In this document: positions 20,807-54,456 of the stretch, piece by piece
Layout: each line of letters begins with the position of its first letter
How positions within the stretch are numbered: the first letter of the stretch is position 1
Assembly (NCBI GenBank): GCA_038064515.1
Contig: JBBTSY010000009.1
Span: 2,155 to 66,154, forward strand
DNA from: Patescibacteria group bacterium
Lineage (GTDB): Bacteria > Patescibacteriota > Minisyncoccia > 2-02-FULL-40-12 > GWA2-44-9
DNA length: 64,000 bases
Reading direction: 5' to 3'
Program-made: the position numbers and the translations under genes
The notes under the pieces: model-generated
The model's input: only the letters and a program-made list of their open reading frames with translations
Told to the model about the DNA's origin: nothing
Databases searched by the model: none

Positions 20807-20955
20807 TGAATCCTCACACTCACCTGACGAGCTGTTCCTGGTGGCGAGGATGGTCATGGATAATAGCATAATATGTCGTGTAATAGTTTGCTGCGCTGTA
20901 AGCACTTCGCTTAGCGGAACGCGAGCCATTACTCGTCAGCGAGTGTAAGGATGAA
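20806..20955 (+). repeat. TIR-140 intergenic element, copy 1 (ATGAA-[TCCTCACACTCACCTGACGAG ... CTCGTCAGCGAGTGTAAGG]-ATGAA)
   Basis: 19-21 bp terminal inverted repeats. Conserved internal blocks CTGTTCCTGGTG and GGAACGCGAGCCATTACT. Overlaps the mreB stop codon and directly abuts the GT4 start codon. Confidence 0.7.
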
Positions 20956-25537: not shown

Positions 25538-26555
25538 ACCTCTCGTCACAATTAATTTGGTCGTCAATAACGGAGAAAAATATCTTCGTTATTGTCTGGA
25601 TCACGTCAGAAGGCAAACGTACGAGAATTTGGAGGTCAATGTCTTTGATAACGCTTCAATTGATTCGACACGTGATATTGTTCAAAGAGAATATCCTGAA
25701 TTTAACCTGATCGCACACCCCCAAAACTTGGGCATGTGGCCGGGTCAGGAGGAGGCGCTCAAATCAAGTCATGGCTTTTATATTGTCGGGCTCTCTGTCG
25801 ACGTAATGATGCATCCGCAATTTGTGAAAAACGCTATCCGGGTGTGCGAAGCTGATCCTTTGATCGGCGCTCTGCAAGCTAAAATACTGCGCTATGATTT
25901 CCAACAACTGGCAGACGGATCATATGACGCTTCGAAAATCATTGATACATGCGGATTTCGCCTTGCTCGATCGCGTCGGGTGATGAATGTTGGTCACGGA
26001 GCCTTTGATTATGGCCAGCATGACCAAGCAACTGAAATATTTGCCGCAGAAGGAGCGGTGCCATTTTTCAAAAAAGAAGCCCTGGAAGCCATCCGCATCG
26101 ACGGCGCTATTGTCGATCACGACTATTTCTGGTACGGAGACGACCTAGACCTTACTTGGCGAATGCAGCTATTTGGATGGAAGCAGTGGTATGATCCCGA
26201 CGTCATTGCATATCATGACCGCTCGACGACAAAAGGACACAGCCGGAGCATGATGGATTATTTCCGCAGAGTTAAGACACGACAGCAAATACCGATCAGA
26301 AAACGCATTCTCGACTGGTCGAACGTGCGGTTTACAATTATTAAAAATGATTATATAATAAACATCTTGAAGGACGCGCCCTACATCGCGATTAGGGAGA
26401 TTCAGGTTTTAGGTTTCGCGCTGCTGTTTGAGCCCCAGATTTTTCTAGAAATTCCTCGCTTTCTCGGGCTTCTTCCGGCGATGCTCCGCAAGCGTCGGCT
26501 CGTGATGGCGAAAGCGAAAAAATCTCCTCAAGAAATGCACACATGGTTCATCTAA
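25530..26555 (+). CDS. glycosyltransferase family 2
   Basis: VTINLVVNNGEKYL...VFDNASIDST GT2 N-terminal motif. Confidence 0.75.
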   Translation: MNKPLVTINLVVNNGEKYLRYCLDHVRRQTYENLEVNVFDNASIDSTRDIVQREYPEFNLIAHPQNLGMWPGQEEALKSSHGFYIVGLSVDVMMHPQFVKNAIRVCEADPLIGALQAKILRYDFQQLADGSYDASKIIDTCGFRLARSRRVMNVGHGAFDYGQHDQATEIFAAEGAVPFFKKEALEAIRIDGAIVDHDYFWYGDDLDLTWRMQLFGWKQWYDPDVIAYHDRSTTKGHSRSMMDYFRRVKTRQQIPIRKRILDWSNVRFTIIKNDYIINILKDAPYIAIREIQVLGFALLFEPQIFLEIPRFLGLLPAMLRKRRLVMAKAKKSPQEMHTWFI

Positions 26556-26571
26556 TTATCTTATTATCGGC

Positions 26572-26723
26572 ATGAATCCTCACACTCACTGAAGAGCTGT
26601 TCCTGGTGATGGCGAGGGTTTATATGAATATATCCATAATACACTGATTGTATGACTTGCTTGTCCGCAATACCAAGTAAGGCGGAACGCGAGCCATTAC
26701 TCTTCAGTGAGTGTGAGGATGAA
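26572..26723 (+). repeat. TIR-140 intergenic element, copy 2 (ATGAA-[TCCTCACACTCACTGAAGAG ... CTCTTCAGTGAGTGTGAGG]-ATGAA)
   Basis: Perfect 19-20 bp TIR with compensatory A/T changes relative to copies 1 and 3. Abuts the LCP start codon. Confidence 0.7.
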
Positions 26724-27744
26724 TTTACAGCCAGACTTTAATGAAAAGCCTCGCCTCCGTTTTAACCGCAAAGGGGTAATTTTGAGTTCAATCTTCATTG
26801 TTATGTTTCTACTTGGTGCCGGCTATACTGCGTATAATTGGTCTGATAGCCTATTAGTGGATGCTGGTAAAGCCAACTGGAAGGAGAATCTTTTTCCGTT
26901 TGGCGGCGATAAGCCGGTGGAAACCGATTACGTGATGCCGAAAGCCGAAGCCAACCGATATGATATTCTTATTCTTGGCGTTCGAGGAAAAGATGACCCG
27001 GACGGCGGAAATTTAACTGATACCATCATGCTGTTTAGCCTCGATAAGACAACGGGCCGATCAACACTCGTTTCTATCCCGCGCGATCTCTATGTGCGGA
27101 TCAGTAAAGACAAGAAGGAAAAAATCAATGCCGTATATGCCTATCTTGGCTTAAGAAGCACCGAAAAACTCGTTTCTCAAATCACCGGCGTGTATGTCGA
27201 TAATAGTATCGTTTTTGATTTCTCTTCATTCAAGAAAATCATCGATGATCTCGGAGGGATCGATATCGTTCTCGATAAACCATTTGAAGAAACAACGCAG
27301 TGGGGATATGTATTTAAGCTTCCAACGGGCCTCAACCACTTAGACGGGGAAAACGCTTTATATTATGTCCGATCCCGCTACTCCTCAAATGACTTTGATC
27401 GCGCTCGCCGACAGCAGCAAGTTATGTTTGCCATCAAAAATAAGGTGATTCAGATGGACTTTCTTTCAAGCCCTGTTCGCAGTTTGAGCCTCCTAAACAC
27501 GCTCAAGAAAAATATCAATACCGACATTAATCTCCTTGATATTAAAGGTTTGATTGAACTTGCTCAACAGGTAAACGTCGATAAAGTAAATCGCCATATT
27601 CTTTCCACGGCTGATTATCTCTATGAAAGTGTTGGTGAGGCGGGTGCTTATGTGCTTTTACCGCAGGGAGATAATTTCAATCGTCTTAAGACTTTTTTCC
27701 AGGATTTTCTGAAACCCGTCTCTGCCGTCTCAAAGAAATCATGA
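26719..27744 (+). CDS. LytR-CpsA-Psr (LCP) family cell-wall polymer ligase
   Basis: TM anchor plus ILILGVRGKDDPDGGNLTDTIMLFSL...SIPRDLYV LCP signature. ATG at 26719 is preferred over the GTG at 26707, which lies inside the repeat. Confidence 0.8.
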   Translation: MNLQPDFNEKPRLRFNRKGVILSSIFIVMFLLGAGYTAYNWSDSLLVDAGKANWKENLFPFGGDKPVETDYVMPKAEANRYDILILGVRGKDDPDGGNLTDTIMLFSLDKTTGRSTLVSIPRDLYVRISKDKKEKINAVYAYLGLRSTEKLVSQITGVYVDNSIVFDFSSFKKIIDDLGGIDIVLDKPFEETTQWGYVFKLPTGLNHLDGENALYYVRSRYSSNDFDRARRQQQVMFAIKNKVIQMDFLSSPVRSLSLLNTLKKNINTDINLLDIKGLIELAQQVNVDKVNRHILSTADYLYESVGEAGAYVLLPQGDNFNRLKTFFQDFLKPVSAVSKKS

Positions 27745-34150: not shown

Positions 34151-35380
34151 TTAGAGATAGTCCGAAGGATTTAGCGAACCATCGAAATAATTAAAATAGA
34201 GCTGTCCCGCTTTAGTATAAGTAAAGAAGTCTTGATAGAGGCTAAGGTGAACATGTGAACCCGTAGAATTGCCTGTAGAGCCTTCATATCCAACGGCTTG
34301 TCCCTGGGTCACTTTTGTACCGACGCGAAGAGGCGCAAACGCGCTCATGTGGCCATAGACACTTACTAGTCCAAAACTGTCATGTTGAACGGCTACCCAG
34401 TTCCCGAACCCTGAATTGAAACCGTTAGCAATAATCTCTCCGGAGCCGATAACCTTAATCGGGGTTCCATAACCTCCGGCGATATCAATCCCATTATGCG
34501 GAGATCCCCCGTATGCTCCTCGTTTTGCATAGGTCGTCATACCGTAGCCCTGCGTCAAACGATAGGAGTCCTCCGGATATGTAAAGAGCTTTGTTCCTCG
34601 AGGAGGAACTCCCGTAGCTTTTACACGTATGATAAATAATCCGCCCGCAACAGCATCAGATTCCAGCTGTTGCATCTCGAGAAAAAGTTGACTGCGCTTT
34701 TTTTCTGCGGCAGTAAGCATTTTCTGATATTCTGCTTCTTGGCCCTTAGTCTGAGCTAGGATGGTGTCCTTTTGAGATTTTACCCCGGTTAAAGAGGAGC
34801 GCTTTGCGCTCTGTTCCTGATTCAGAGAAATAAGCTCCCCTTTCTTATCTTCTAGTCCAACTTTAGAAATCTCCAGCTGCTGCTTTTGATTGCGAAGATC
34901 GCCAATTAATTCCAGAAGTTTATCATTCACGTTTGCCAGTTGTTGAGCCTCGCTCAAAAACGTCGAAAGATTTTCATTCTTCATGAGTGTAGCCATTAAG
35001 TTCTCGTTATCGCGCTGATTCAAAAAAATAAGCAGTTCACCGACTGTCTCCCGCCGACGATCAATAGTCTGTTGAGTTTCAAAAATATTTCCCTCCATGT
35101 CGGTAATTTCTACTTTTGTTTTACTGATTTTTGTAGACGTCAAAATAATCTGCTGTTCCAGGCCCTGGATCTCTTTCTTGATAATCGCGATGTCTCGCTG
35201 AAGCGTTTGGGCTTTTGCGCGTTCTTCAGCGATACTTCCTTTGAATTGCTTAGCTTGCTCTTCAAGCACTTCAATTTGTTTAAGTAATTCAGCAATGCGT
35301 GCTTCGTTGGCGGCAAATGCTGGCACGACAAAATTAAAGGTAGCAATACTGATGAGCATGGTGCTAATAAATCGTTTCAT
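34151..35380 (-). CDS. M23/LytM-family peptidoglycan endopeptidase with signal peptide and coiled-coil
   Basis: C-terminal HNGIDIAGGYGTPI...GSTGNSTGSHVHLS M23 motifs. Start MKRFISTMLISIA at 35380, directly abutting repeat copy 3. Confidence 0.8.
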   Translation of the reverse strand: MKRFISTMLISIATFNFVVPAFAANEARIAELLKQIEVLEEQAKQFKGSIAEERAKAQTLQRDIAIIKKEIQGLEQQIILTSTKISKTKVEITDMEGNIFETQQTIDRRRETVGELLIFLNQRDNENLMATLMKNENLSTFLSEAQQLANVNDKLLELIGDLRNQKQQLEISKVGLEDKKGELISLNQEQSAKRSSLTGVKSQKDTILAQTKGQEAEYQKMLTAAEKKRSQLFLEMQQLESDAVAGGLFIIRVKATGVPPRGTKLFTYPEDSYRLTQGYGMTTYAKRGAYGGSPHNGIDIAGGYGTPIKVIGSGEIIANGFNSGFGNWVAVQHDSFGLVSVYGHMSAFAPLRVGTKVTQGQAVGYEGSTGNSTGSHVHLSLYQDFFTYTKAGQLYFNYFDGSLNPSDYL

Positions 35381-35524
35381 CCTCACACTCACTGACGAGA
35401 TATGGCTCGCTCCGCACAGCGTAGTGCTAGGGAGAAGCTTTTTCATATTCGACAGATAATTACTGCCATACTCAATATCATCGCCATTTCTAGGAACAAC
35501 TCGTCTGTGAGTGTGAGGATTCAT
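35376..35524 (-). repeat. TIR-140 intergenic element, copy 3, reverse orientation, abutting the M23 peptidase start and overlapping the gltX stop
   Basis: Read on the minus strand: ATGAA-[TCCTCACACTCACAGACGAG ... CTCGTCAGTGAGTGTGAGG]-ATGAA. Confidence 0.7.
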
Positions 35525-52329: not shown

Positions 52330-53709
52330 ATGCAGAACGGGACCACCACTATCATGACGCAATTGCCGCCTCAAAATTTAGACGCGGAAAAATCACTATT
52401 AGGCGCTCTCCTCATCGATAAAGAAGCCATCAATAAAGTGATAGATATCCTGGGTGCGGACGACTTCTATAATCGCAATAACCAGGTTATTTTTGATGCC
52501 GTGATGACGCTCTTTGAGAAGCGAGAAAACATCGATATTTTGAGCCTGTCGAATAAACTGCGCGAAATGGGCGCTTTAGAGCAGATCGGCGGCATGAGTT
52601 ATCTCACATCACTCGCCAATTCCGTGCCCACTTCCGCGCACGTTGCTACCTATGCCCGCATCGTTCAGCGCAAGAAAACTCTCCGCAATCTGATTGATAC
52701 TGCGCATCACATCATCAGTCTCGGTTATCGAGAAGAAGATGATATTGAAAACCTTCTCGATGAGGCTGAACAAAGGCTTTTTCAAGTTTCCCAAAAAACT
52801 TACGGCCAGAGCTTCAATCCCCTTGCCACCGGGCTGGAAGCGGCCATGGAACGCATCAGCAATCAAGATAGCGGCGTAATGCGCGGTCACCCCACAAAGC
52901 ACAGGCGTTTAGACGAATTGCTCGGCGGATTCCAAAAATCAGACCTGATCATTCTGGCCGCTCGCCCTTCGGTCGGAAAAACGGCATTCGCCATTGATCT
53001 GGCGTTACGCGCCGCGGAACAGAATATTCCGGTCGGCATGTTCAGTTTAGAAATGTCTATCGATCAAGTCATCGATCGATTCATTTCAACAAAATCAAGT
53101 ACGAGTTTATGGAAACTCCGTACCGGAAAACTTTCACACGACGGAACCGATGATTTTCTTAAGATCACTAATGCCATCAGTGACTTAAAAGAACTCCCCA
53201 TCTTTATTGACGACGCCGCTTCCCTTAATGTACTCCAAATGCGCGCTATGGCTCGTCGTCTGCAAGCTGAACATGGTTTAGGACTCTTAATCGTTGATTA
53301 TCTCCAATTAATGGCCGCTCGTAGAAACTATGATAGTCCCGTGCAACAGGTTACTGAAATCTCCCGCGGATTAAAGGGACTGGCGAAGGAACTGAATATT
53401 CCCGTAATCGCCATTTCCCAACTTTCCCGCGCCGTGGAGCACCGAGGCGACAATGCTAAGCCGAAGTTATCCGATCTTCGGGATTCCGGCTCTATTGAAC
53501 AAGACGCCGATGTGGTTATGTTTATCCATCGCGAGGATAAGGTAAATTTTCAAGCCGCCCAAGATAGCGGAAAACTAAATATGGCTCAACTTCTCATTGC
53601 TAAACATCGTAATGGCCCTACTGGCCAAGTAGATTTCCATATCGATCCTGATTCGCTTAAATTCCTTGAGATTGATAAAACTCACCAGGATATCGACTTT
53701 GCATTCTAA
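52330..53709 (+). CDS. dnaB: replicative DNA helicase DnaB (no intein)
   Basis: Walker A ARPSVGKTAF and the RecA-like C-terminal domain. Confidence 0.9.
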   Translation: MQNGTTTIMTQLPPQNLDAEKSLLGALLIDKEAINKVIDILGADDFYNRNNQVIFDAVMTLFEKRENIDILSLSNKLREMGALEQIGGMSYLTSLANSVPTSAHVATYARIVQRKKTLRNLIDTAHHIISLGYREEDDIENLLDEAEQRLFQVSQKTYGQSFNPLATGLEAAMERISNQDSGVMRGHPTKHRRLDELLGGFQKSDLIILAARPSVGKTAFAIDLALRAAEQNIPVGMFSLEMSIDQVIDRFISTKSSTSLWKLRTGKLSHDGTDDFLKITNAISDLKELPIFIDDAASLNVLQMRAMARRLQAEHGLGLLIVDYLQLMAARRNYDSPVQQVTEISRGLKGLAKELNIPVIAISQLSRAVEHRGDNAKPKLSDLRDSGSIEQDADVVMFIHREDKVNFQAAQDSGKLNMAQLLIAKHRNGPTGQVDFHIDPDSLKFLEIDKTHQDIDFAF

Positions 53710-54305
53710 TGAATCCTCGTTTTAAATATCTCGTCCGTTTATTCCAAAAACTCCCCGGCGTCGGCCAACGGCAGGGTGCGCGTTTTGTTTTATCATTATT
53801 AAATCGTGACGAACAGGAATTGCAAGAGCTTGGAGATGCTATCGCTACGCTCAAACAATCAGTCCGCTTCTGCAAAGAGTGCTTTAACGTAGCCGAGGAC
53901 GAGATCTGTCTTATTTGCGCTAATCCGCGGCGCGATACTTCCAAAATGCTTGTTGTCGAAAAGATAACCGATTTGGACTCTATTGAAAGAACTGGTCTTT
54001 ACCGAGGCCTATATCATGTGTTGGGAGGCAGTATTAACCCCGTGGAGGGTATGACGCCGGAACACCTTAAAATTCGAGAATTAAAAAGTCGCGTCCAGAA
54101 GCTTTCCAAAAATAAGGAAGAGTTCGAGCTTATTCTGGCTACTGGTACCGCCACCTCGGGGGAAACAACCGCACTTTATATTCGGGAACTTTTTCATGAT
54201 CAGCCGATTATACTTACCCGCTTGGGCCGAGGACTCTCGGCCGGTTCAAATCTCGAATATGCTGACGAAATCACATTAAAGCACGCGTTAGAACAAAGAA
54301 AATGA
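53709..54305 (+). CDS. recR: recombination protein RecR
   Basis: HhH, C4 zinc finger (CKECFNVAEDEICLIC) and Toprim. Confidence 0.9.
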   Translation: MNPRFKYLVRLFQKLPGVGQRQGARFVLSLLNRDEQELQELGDAIATLKQSVRFCKECFNVAEDEICLICANPRRDTSKMLVVEKITDLDSIERTGLYRGLYHVLGGSINPVEGMTPEHLKIRELKSRVQKLSKNKEEFELILATGTATSGETTALYIRELFHDQPIILTRLGRGLSAGSNLEYADEITLKHALEQRK

Positions 54306-54413
54306 AAAGGTAGAACCGATGTGTAACTAATGCTCGTCCCGAACGAAGTGCGGGACTGACGAAATCACATTAAAGCACGCGTTAGAACAAAGAAAATAAA
54401 AAGGTAGAATTAC
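54257..54413 (+). repeat. ~52-nt direct duplication of the recR 3' end (GACGAAATCACATTAAAGCACGCGTTAGAACAAAGAAAAT(G/A)AAAAGGTAGAA), separated by a 40-nt spacer containing the hairpin GTCCCGaacgaagtgCGGGAC
   Basis: Copies at 54257-54317 and 54358-54410 with one mismatch. Confidence 0.7.
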
Positions 54414-54423
54414 TACTCAAACA

Positions 54424-54456
54424 AAAATCTCCCTCGTTTAGAGGGAGATTTTTGTA
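54424..54456. terminator. bidirectional intrinsic terminator (ATCTCCCTC-GTTTA-GAGGGAGAT) overlapping the last codons of rplU
   Basis: 9-bp stem with an A-run on one side and a T-run on the other. Confidence 0.6.

Follow-up and report, generated by a model that had tools for sequence, protein, structure and literature searches.

The window, a 64,000-nucleotide stretch of DNA from a Patescibacteria population of Hainich groundwater, carries a short inverted-repeat element between a GT2 glycosyltransferase gene and an LCP gene (copy 2), and two further copies of the element at other gene junctions. Arm-like matches numbered five in the window, against 0.00 expected by chance (100 shuffles). An nhmmer profile search of the window returned exactly three full copies and no fragment or partial copy besides them, placing copy 2 at 26573–26723 on the forward strand. 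The roughly 2 kb examined beyond the window start held no further copy. The features, including terminal inverted repeats (TIRs), are as follows.

20807–20955, + strand: copy 1 with both TGAA repeats; TIRs at 20811–20831 and 20932–20951
26573–26576, + strand: 5' target-site duplication TGAA of copy 2, within ATGAA 26572–26576, the displaced copy of the original start codon
26577–26596, + strand: 5' TIR of copy 2, TCCTCACACTCACTGAAGAG; variant base A at 26593
26597–26699, + strand: core of copy 2, with end blocks GCTGTTCCTGGTGATGGCGA and GCGGAACGCGAGCCATTA, a variable AT-rich middle and no transposase ORF
26700–26719, + strand: 3' TIR of copy 2, CTCTTCAGTGAGTGTGAGGA; variant base T at 26703; holds a spurious GTG at 26707
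26720–26723, + strand: 3' target-site duplication TGAA of copy 2; the true LCP start is ATG 26719–26721
26719–27744, + strand: LCP (LytR-CpsA-Psr) gene, 341 aa, its ATG rebuilt through the duplication
35376–35523, − strand: copy 3 with both TGAA repeats; on the element strand, 5' TIR at 35519–35500 and 3' TIR at 35399–35380

Copy 1 lies between the mreB stop (TAA 20804–20806) and the start of a GT4 glycosyltransferase gene (ATG 20951), and copy 3 between the gltX stop (TGA 35523–35521) and the start of an M23 peptidase gene (ATG 35380–35378). All three copies sit between co-directional genes, whose orientation they share, and each is flanked on both sides by the same four bases, TGAA. The element, about 143 bp long, consists of 20-bp TIRs, conserved subterminal blocks that are not inverted copies of one another, and an AT-rich middle of low conservation. 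Pairwise identity averages 0.94 and 0.86 in the arms, 0.73 and 0.82 in the subterminal blocks and 0.54 in the middle, and the only ORFs within the element are read-throughs of the flanking gene frame. The arms of copy 2 form an exact 20-bp inverted repeat, as an earlier note on this sequence had stated, and the pairing reaches 21 bp once A26576/T26720 is added; the final A of the 3' arm is the A of the LCP ATG. The other copies carry one to three arm defects each: a bulged extra C in the 5' arm, one A.C and one C.A opposition in copy 1, and an A.A opposition in copy 3.

Two other features of the window may be recorded here. A sigma-70-like, near-consensus promoter (TTTACA, 17 nt, TATAAT; 11/12) lies at 26331–26359 (+), inside the 3' part of the GT2 gene and about 240 nt upstream of copy 2. 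Elsewhere, a 54-nt direct repeat (98% identical, reported with 94-nt spacing) occupies 54262–54315 and 54356–54409; the 3' end of the ORF at 53709–54305 reaches into its first copy, and a terminator-like hairpin is found at approximately 54420–54445.

The position of copy 2 bears directly on where the LCP gene begins. The GTG at 26707, which the earlier note had located inside the 3' arm, is indeed the first possible start of the mechanically called ORF, and the four extra codons that follow from it (VSVR) are encoded by the inverted repeat. The proposal that the gene starts instead at ATG 26719 was borne out: the identical database protein (NCBI 'MAG: LCP family protein [Patescibacteria group bacterium]') has the 341 aa of a start at ATG 26719, the LCP gene of the related locus L018 begins ATGAACTTACAACCTGATTTTAAT (MNLQPDFN) with no element before it, and none of the LCP homologues has residues aligned to the arm-encoded VSVR. 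The GTG looks like a start, while the real one is the ATG, because the duplication rebuilds that codon. The same arm codons precede unrelated genes in the mechanical ORF lists, as MSVRMK at an L31 gene and MSVRME at a DUF5671 gene, and the N-termini after the rebuilt ATG match homologues (MKIALVHDW for GT4, MKRF for M23, MNLQPDFN for LCP).

The element thus causes start-codon and N-terminal extension errors, of which the GTG at 26707 is one. Copy 3 is open in frame with the M23 gene, yielding a spurious ORF of 457 aa (34151–35524, −) instead of 409 aa. An exact look-up of the 409-aa protein found it not on record, probably as a result of gene calls that run on into the element. Likewise, the TPR protein beside the copy at locus L012 (P0121 / L029:10001-10744) is recorded with 247 aa instead of 220 aa.

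Copies elsewhere and filled and empty sites

A metagenome scan with the arm pattern revealed four further loci with real copies (L006, L014, L012 and L015); eight other matches were rejected as chance occurrences within coding regions. Scanning GTDB species representatives with the two-arm pattern returned only an unrelated, near-perfect 145-nt palindrome in an uncultured bacterium (L001:4845-4989, CAJMQU010000067.1), which shares the 13-nt TCCTCACACTCAC with the arms by chance, and the scan of viral contigs with the arm pattern was empty. L006 and L014, from two independent Hainich assemblies, carry a copy that is 100% identical to window positions 26572–26723 over 152 nt. Located between rpsB and rpmE, in their divergent region, this twin of copy 2 falls right on the start of rpmE (L31), at a locus unrelated to the LCP locus. 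The homology breaks off exactly at ATGAA on one flank and at TGAA on the other, so that identity spans precisely 26572–26723, which together with the single ATGAA at the empty site of L018 is the basis for the 5' duplication assigned to copy 2. Given this identical twin at another locus, the copy-2 sub-lineage has moved recently.

The remaining copies extend the range of flanks and sites. In L012 (a JGI contig of 151 kb) the copy coincides with the beginning of a TPR protein gene, and in L015 (Hainich) with that of a DUF5671 membrane protein gene. Both belong to the sequence sub-family of copy 3, yet they are flanked by TGGA...TGGA whereas copy 3 has TGAA; because both tetranucleotides occur within one sub-family, the flanks track the site and not the element. 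A copy-1-like element with one base difference in its 3' arm follows mreB at L003:1062-1214, where the next gene is not GT4 but starts ATGAATGAA and encodes a 130-aa protein beginning MNETLEQE. This is either a seventh insertion site, a chimeric low-coverage assembly through the repeat, or a real rearrangement, so the known insertion sites number six, or seven counting L003. Several contigs stop within the element, and those of independent Hainich assemblies (L002 and L004) break off some 50 nt after copy 1 begins, so that metagenome assembly of the source genome is fragmented by the repeat.

We compared these sites with five syntenic relatives (L018, L019, L024, L026 and L028), in which gene order is kept and the LCP protein is 69–80% identical. 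The element is absent from every window site that they share and from all of approximately 105 kb, and the GT2/LCP, gltX/M23 and mreB/GT4 junctions are element-free in every syntenic relative having that junction. The relatives' junctions equal the window minus the element minus one TGAA, with the exception of the LCP start, where only L018 keeps the ATGAA start (CAGCCCCATGAACTTACAACCTGATTTTAAT) and the other relatives begin further upstream. A single ATGAA is present at M23 in the relatives, and at GT4 in L024 (ATTCATAAATGAAAATTGCT) and L028. At gltX/M23, L026 reads ...AAACTATGAAACGAATA where the window reads ...TTTCATGAA, element, TGAAACGATTT; stop and start codons overlap as ATGA at this junction in L024, L026 and L028, which fits the reconstructed pre-insertion sequence of the window.

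The cleanest pair of filled and empty sites is that of L015 against L030/L031, for which identity is 94% in the DUF5671 protein and approximately 92% in the DNA. In short form, the filled site of L015 reads ...ctttttctATGGA, element, TGGAAAATCTC and the empty site of L030/L031 ...ctttttctATGGAAAATCTC; in longer form, they read ...ctttttctATGGA, element, TGGAAAATCTCAAT and ...ctttttctATGGAAAATCTCAAT. TGGA occurs twice in L015 and once in L030/L031. These comparisons establish a target duplication of 4 bp, TGAA or TGGA, which could be 5 bp (ATGRA) if the terminal A is assigned to the target, and they show that the element comes and goes as one unit. Comparison of filled with empty sites alone does not separate insertion from precise excision, and both imply mobility.

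Other inserts were encountered at some of these junctions. At L019:4345-4428, the spacer from mreB to GT4 holds an inverted-repeat unit of another kind, approximately 85 nt long (GGAGTATTTATTTCCGATCC ... GGATCGGAAATAAGCACTCC), which may represent a second MITE-like family at the junction where the window has copy 1. In L032 (GCA_034680565.1), the closest sequenced relative, an additional insert of about 430 nt that contains a 98-aa ORF (L032:9657-10087) takes the place of the 34-nt AhpC–DUF5671 spacer found in L030, and the DUF5671 gene of L032 is over-called by 29 codons, through the promoter-like box TGCTACAAT. The N-terminal extension of P0128 looked element-like at first; it derives from a different insert without an inverted repeat.

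[quoted passage not shown] The published definition of MITEs (PMC3184786) fits its anatomy: it is small, MITEs generally staying below 200–400 bp, has no transposase gene, possesses TIRs and a duplication verified by empty sites, occurs at unrelated sites and has moved recently. What was not recovered is an autonomous partner, for which we scanned with the arm pattern one genome, one metagenome and one viral collection; these collections do not include the full source genome, and the scans gave only MITE copies or chance matches. Such a partner would be expected to be bracketed by the element end sequences, the 13-nt TCCTCACACTCAC and GTGAGTGTGAGGA. A transposase acting in trans, which we infer from the anatomy, would bind the element ends, and insertion at TGAA or TGGA through a 4-bp staggered cut would duplicate the four bases and rebuild an ATG on the gene side. 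It is because the duplication restores this ATG that the reading frame survives. The copy-2 sub-lineage, with its perfect arms, is the one that moved recently, and the copies with decaying arms are older.

Position on start codons

All six independent insertions (seven of seven with L003) coincide with a start codon of the form ATG(A/G)A and run in the same direction as the gene, and at every copy the downstream ATG is made up of the last A of the 3' repeat and the TG of the flanking duplicate. Coding sequence of the window contains 1028 TG(A/G)A sites, the intergenic spaces 121 and start codons 16; the corresponding numbers of ATG(A/G)A sites are 279, 36 and 16. Under a null that admits non-coding sites only, six of six insertions at starts would have a probability of approximately 2.5e-6 with a 4-bp target, or 8.5e-4 with a 5-bp one, and six of six in one orientation a probability of about 0.02–0.03. 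All these are rough values that rest on crude gene calls and on window counts applied across genomes. Tolerance alone does not account for this pattern, and the preference for start codons is unusual and statistically supported. The element shows an insertion preference for the first codon of genes. Neither the strict association with start codons nor the single orientation is expected of a DDE transposon with symmetric TIRs.

The translation signals of the host are relevant to such sites. Shine-Dalgarno-like motifs are almost absent before start codons across the window, many genes have a TATAAT/TAGAAT/TACAAT-like box 5–8 nt before the ATG, and leaderless mRNAs accordingly appear common in the source genome, to judge by these motifs. 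The pre-insertion sites at rpmE, the TPR gene and DUF5671 look leaderless (e.g., TGATACACT-TTTTCT-ATG and TGCTACAAT-GCTAGCC-ATG), and those at GT4 and M23 are stop/start overlaps. Insertion would turn a gene of either kind into one lying behind a 147-nt hairpin, which may affect its expression. The insertion loci could thus serve as natural experiments on translation initiation in such hosts.

Once the element is in place, the upstream ATG heads a short ORF, whose stop falls within the element in four of the five distinct copies; in copy 3, its frame continues into M23. The true ATG is at the helix foot. A leader peptide following the upstream ATG (MNPHTH*) was considered and rejected for want of conservation: there is a frameshift in copy 1 and read-through in copy 3. 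On the sense strand of the element we found no consistent sigma-70-like promoter, the −10 position before the rebuilt ATG lacking the key A, and no ribosome-binding signal was detected inside the element. An internal outward promoter was likewise rejected as the cause of the fixed orientation, there being no consistent site for it within the element.

A speculative reading is that start codons tolerate, or even favour, the element by virtue of its hairpin. The RNA hairpin would put either the displaced upstream AUG(A/G)A or the stop codon of the gene upstream beside the rebuilt AUG, at the base of a 20-bp helix; ribosomes that initiate or terminate 5' of the helix would melt it and be passed on to the true AUG. 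This would be of consequence in a host whose translation is leaderless and coupled, with no Shine-Dalgarno pairing. We consider this decidedly doubtful. If it were true, the element would offer a prokaryotic analogue of ribosome shunting or of long-range translational coupling carried by a mobile element, and matched changes in the arms would be selected at the host level.

The matched change in the arms

At arm position 17, copies 1 and 3 have C/G where copy 2 has A/T, in both arms, as the earlier note had reported. The C/G pair, present in copy 1 and in the group of copy 3, L012 and L015, would be ancestral by this distribution, and A/T derived on the copy-2 lineage. Because the rpmE twin has the A/T pair too, the pair predates the last transposition. 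The two substitutions are the only ones specific to the copy-2 arms and they are exactly complementary; the chance of a complementary second change given the first is about 1/60, a rough and post hoc estimate. Such a matched change is not predicted by independent protein recognition of each end, and would be predicted by a pairing-dependent step or by arm-to-arm repair in a hairpin.

The earlier note had offered a selected helix as one explanation of this pattern, and the arms of the five distinct copies give it little support, with one compensated pair against at least six uncompensated defects. Uncompensated arm mutations, which that note had itself set against a selected helix, were already present in copies 1 and 3. 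Pairing in the 21-pair outer helix reaches 93% over the five copies; one pair has changed on both sides, four pairs depart only via unpaired cells, and there are in addition a bulge and a 1-nt deletion. Column shuffles were as good as the observed pairing in 109 of 500 cases, and the RNAalifold covariation term of +0.96 gives no added covariation support. One A.A opposition recurs in three copies that come from different genomes, and three copies show C.A or A.C oppositions. The three transition-type mismatches would all be G.U on the antisense strand, which with three events is not significant (1 in 8). The evidence for a selected helix is therefore weak, and the A/T pair is a marker of one recently mobile sub-lineage rather than proof of a selected RNA helix. 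The note's other suggestion, ends inherited from a variant master copy, holds as far as inheritance goes, given the 152-nt twin with its A/T pair, but it does not explain how the double change arose.

These observations can be set against other readings of the element. Were it a structured cis-acting RNA, a long helix would sequester the downstream start codon and the double change in copy 2 would reflect selection for that helix. Every copy is co-oriented with its flanking genes and would be co-transcribed with them, the sense-strand folds are predicted to be far more stable than shuffles (z −3.5 to −7.4), and the only perfect helix is found in the only lineage shown to have been recently active, all of which this reading would accommodate along with the complementary substitutions. 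However, the antisense strand folds about equally well, as for any inverted repeat, the double change is a single event that shuffling readily equals, and the shared oppositions persist. Orthologous conservation with covariation, which would mark a structured cis-regulatory RNA, was not found, the element being absent from the orthologous sites of all syntenic relatives, and an identical copy serves genes as unrelated as LCP and L31. Rfam gave no match at the locus (E<=10), and none in the whole window at the gathering threshold save three tRNAs elsewhere. We therefore regard a cis-acting RNA as very unlikely. Two particular structures were also rejected: a subterminal pseudoknot (GTTCC/GGAAC, ATGGC/GCCAT) shows no covariation and its first pairing is broken in L012, L015 and copy 3, and a hammerhead ribozyme, which has CUGANGA and GAAA cores at a three-way junction, was considered for the arm motif CUGAnGAG, but CUGAMGAG pairs with its complement inside the outer helix, and there is neither a GAAA core nor an Rfam match. 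The conserved ends could alternatively serve a host-level function.

Two further readings concern how the element moves and how its arms are maintained. Mobilisation by a single-stranded DNA hairpin or a site-specific recombinase, comparable to IS200/IS605 PATEs, with directional insertion 3' of ATG(A/G)A, would explain the asymmetric, sequence-specific target and the one orientation seen in six to seven of six to seven insertions; the right-hand TGRA would then be element-borne or copied rather than a staggered-cut duplication. The element folds over its full length into a hairpin, with smaller ones in the subterminal parts, and a pairing-dependent intermediate would favour matched arm changes. 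Yet IS200/IS605 ends are not known to consist of perfect 20-bp TIRs at the extreme termini, the flanking tetranucleotides change together within a sub-family, for which a true target duplication is the simplest account, and no HUH or TnpA gene was noticed beside any copy in a non-systematic look; we find this reading improbable. Gene conversion from one palindrome arm to the other is well established, and the double change may have arisen in this way: one arm mutated, mismatch repair in a hairpin or cruciform matched the other, and daughters inherited the pair without selection. The twin proves that the A/T pair is older than the last move, and copy 2 is the only copy with flawless arms. Nevertheless, such conversion is clearly inefficient in the element family, in which mismatches persist in copies 1, 3, L012 and L015, one of them shared across genomes. 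We hold it as a tentative possibility that is rather unlikely.

Comparison with known repeats

As a MITE, the element constitutes a new family, without sequence similarity to described ones (Rfam negative). In the literature searched, no MITE was described in the candidate phyla radiation or Patescibacteria, and no MITE that targets start codons. Mobile elements are thought to be scarce in reduced Patescibacteria genomes, and the element shows active DNA transposition in one such genome.

Reviewed bacterial MITEs include Correia of Neisseria, RUP of Streptococcus pneumoniae, ERIC/IRU of enterobacteria and Nezha of cyanobacteria (PMC3184786). Like these, the element is in the range of about 100–170 bp, has TIRs and flanking target duplications, lacks a transposase and lies between genes; its transcript could form a long stem-loop, and its presence or absence differs among relatives. 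It differs from them in its target, TGAA/TGGA rather than TA, in that all known copies lie on a start codon in one orientation, and in its Patescibacteria host. The REP2 repeats of Neisseria and the IR repeats of Borrelia immediately precede genes and contain promoter, RBS and ATG (PMC3184786). As in those repeats, the 3' end of the element coincides with the ATG of unrelated genes, but here it is the duplicated target, rather than the repeat, that provides the ATG, the element has no detectable promoter or RBS, and mobility is shown by empty sites.

Integron attC sites were rejected as a match, as the arms have no R''/R' cores (RYYYAAC ... GTTRRRY) and mreB, gltX and the LCP operon are syntenic housekeeping genes rather than mobile gene cassettes, whose 3' ends bear such cores. 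The Rickettsia palindromic elements (RPEs) are small palindromic mobile repeats of a reduced genome that lie inside genes and are translated. Like them, the element persists in or at coding sequence with the frame preserved, as copy 3 does by remaining open in frame with M23; unlike them, it sits at the first codon, and in-frame stops follow the upstream ATG in four of the five distinct copies. IS200/IS605-derived PATEs and REP/RAYT systems are not known to have long terminal inverted repeats or to make target duplications; PATEs have subterminal hairpins and insert 3' of a fixed tetra- or pentanucleotide. The element shares with these systems its capacity to form a hairpin, its sequence-specific target and its fixed orientation to that target, and it departs from them in its long TIRs and in its target duplications, the flanking tetranucleotides of which co-vary.
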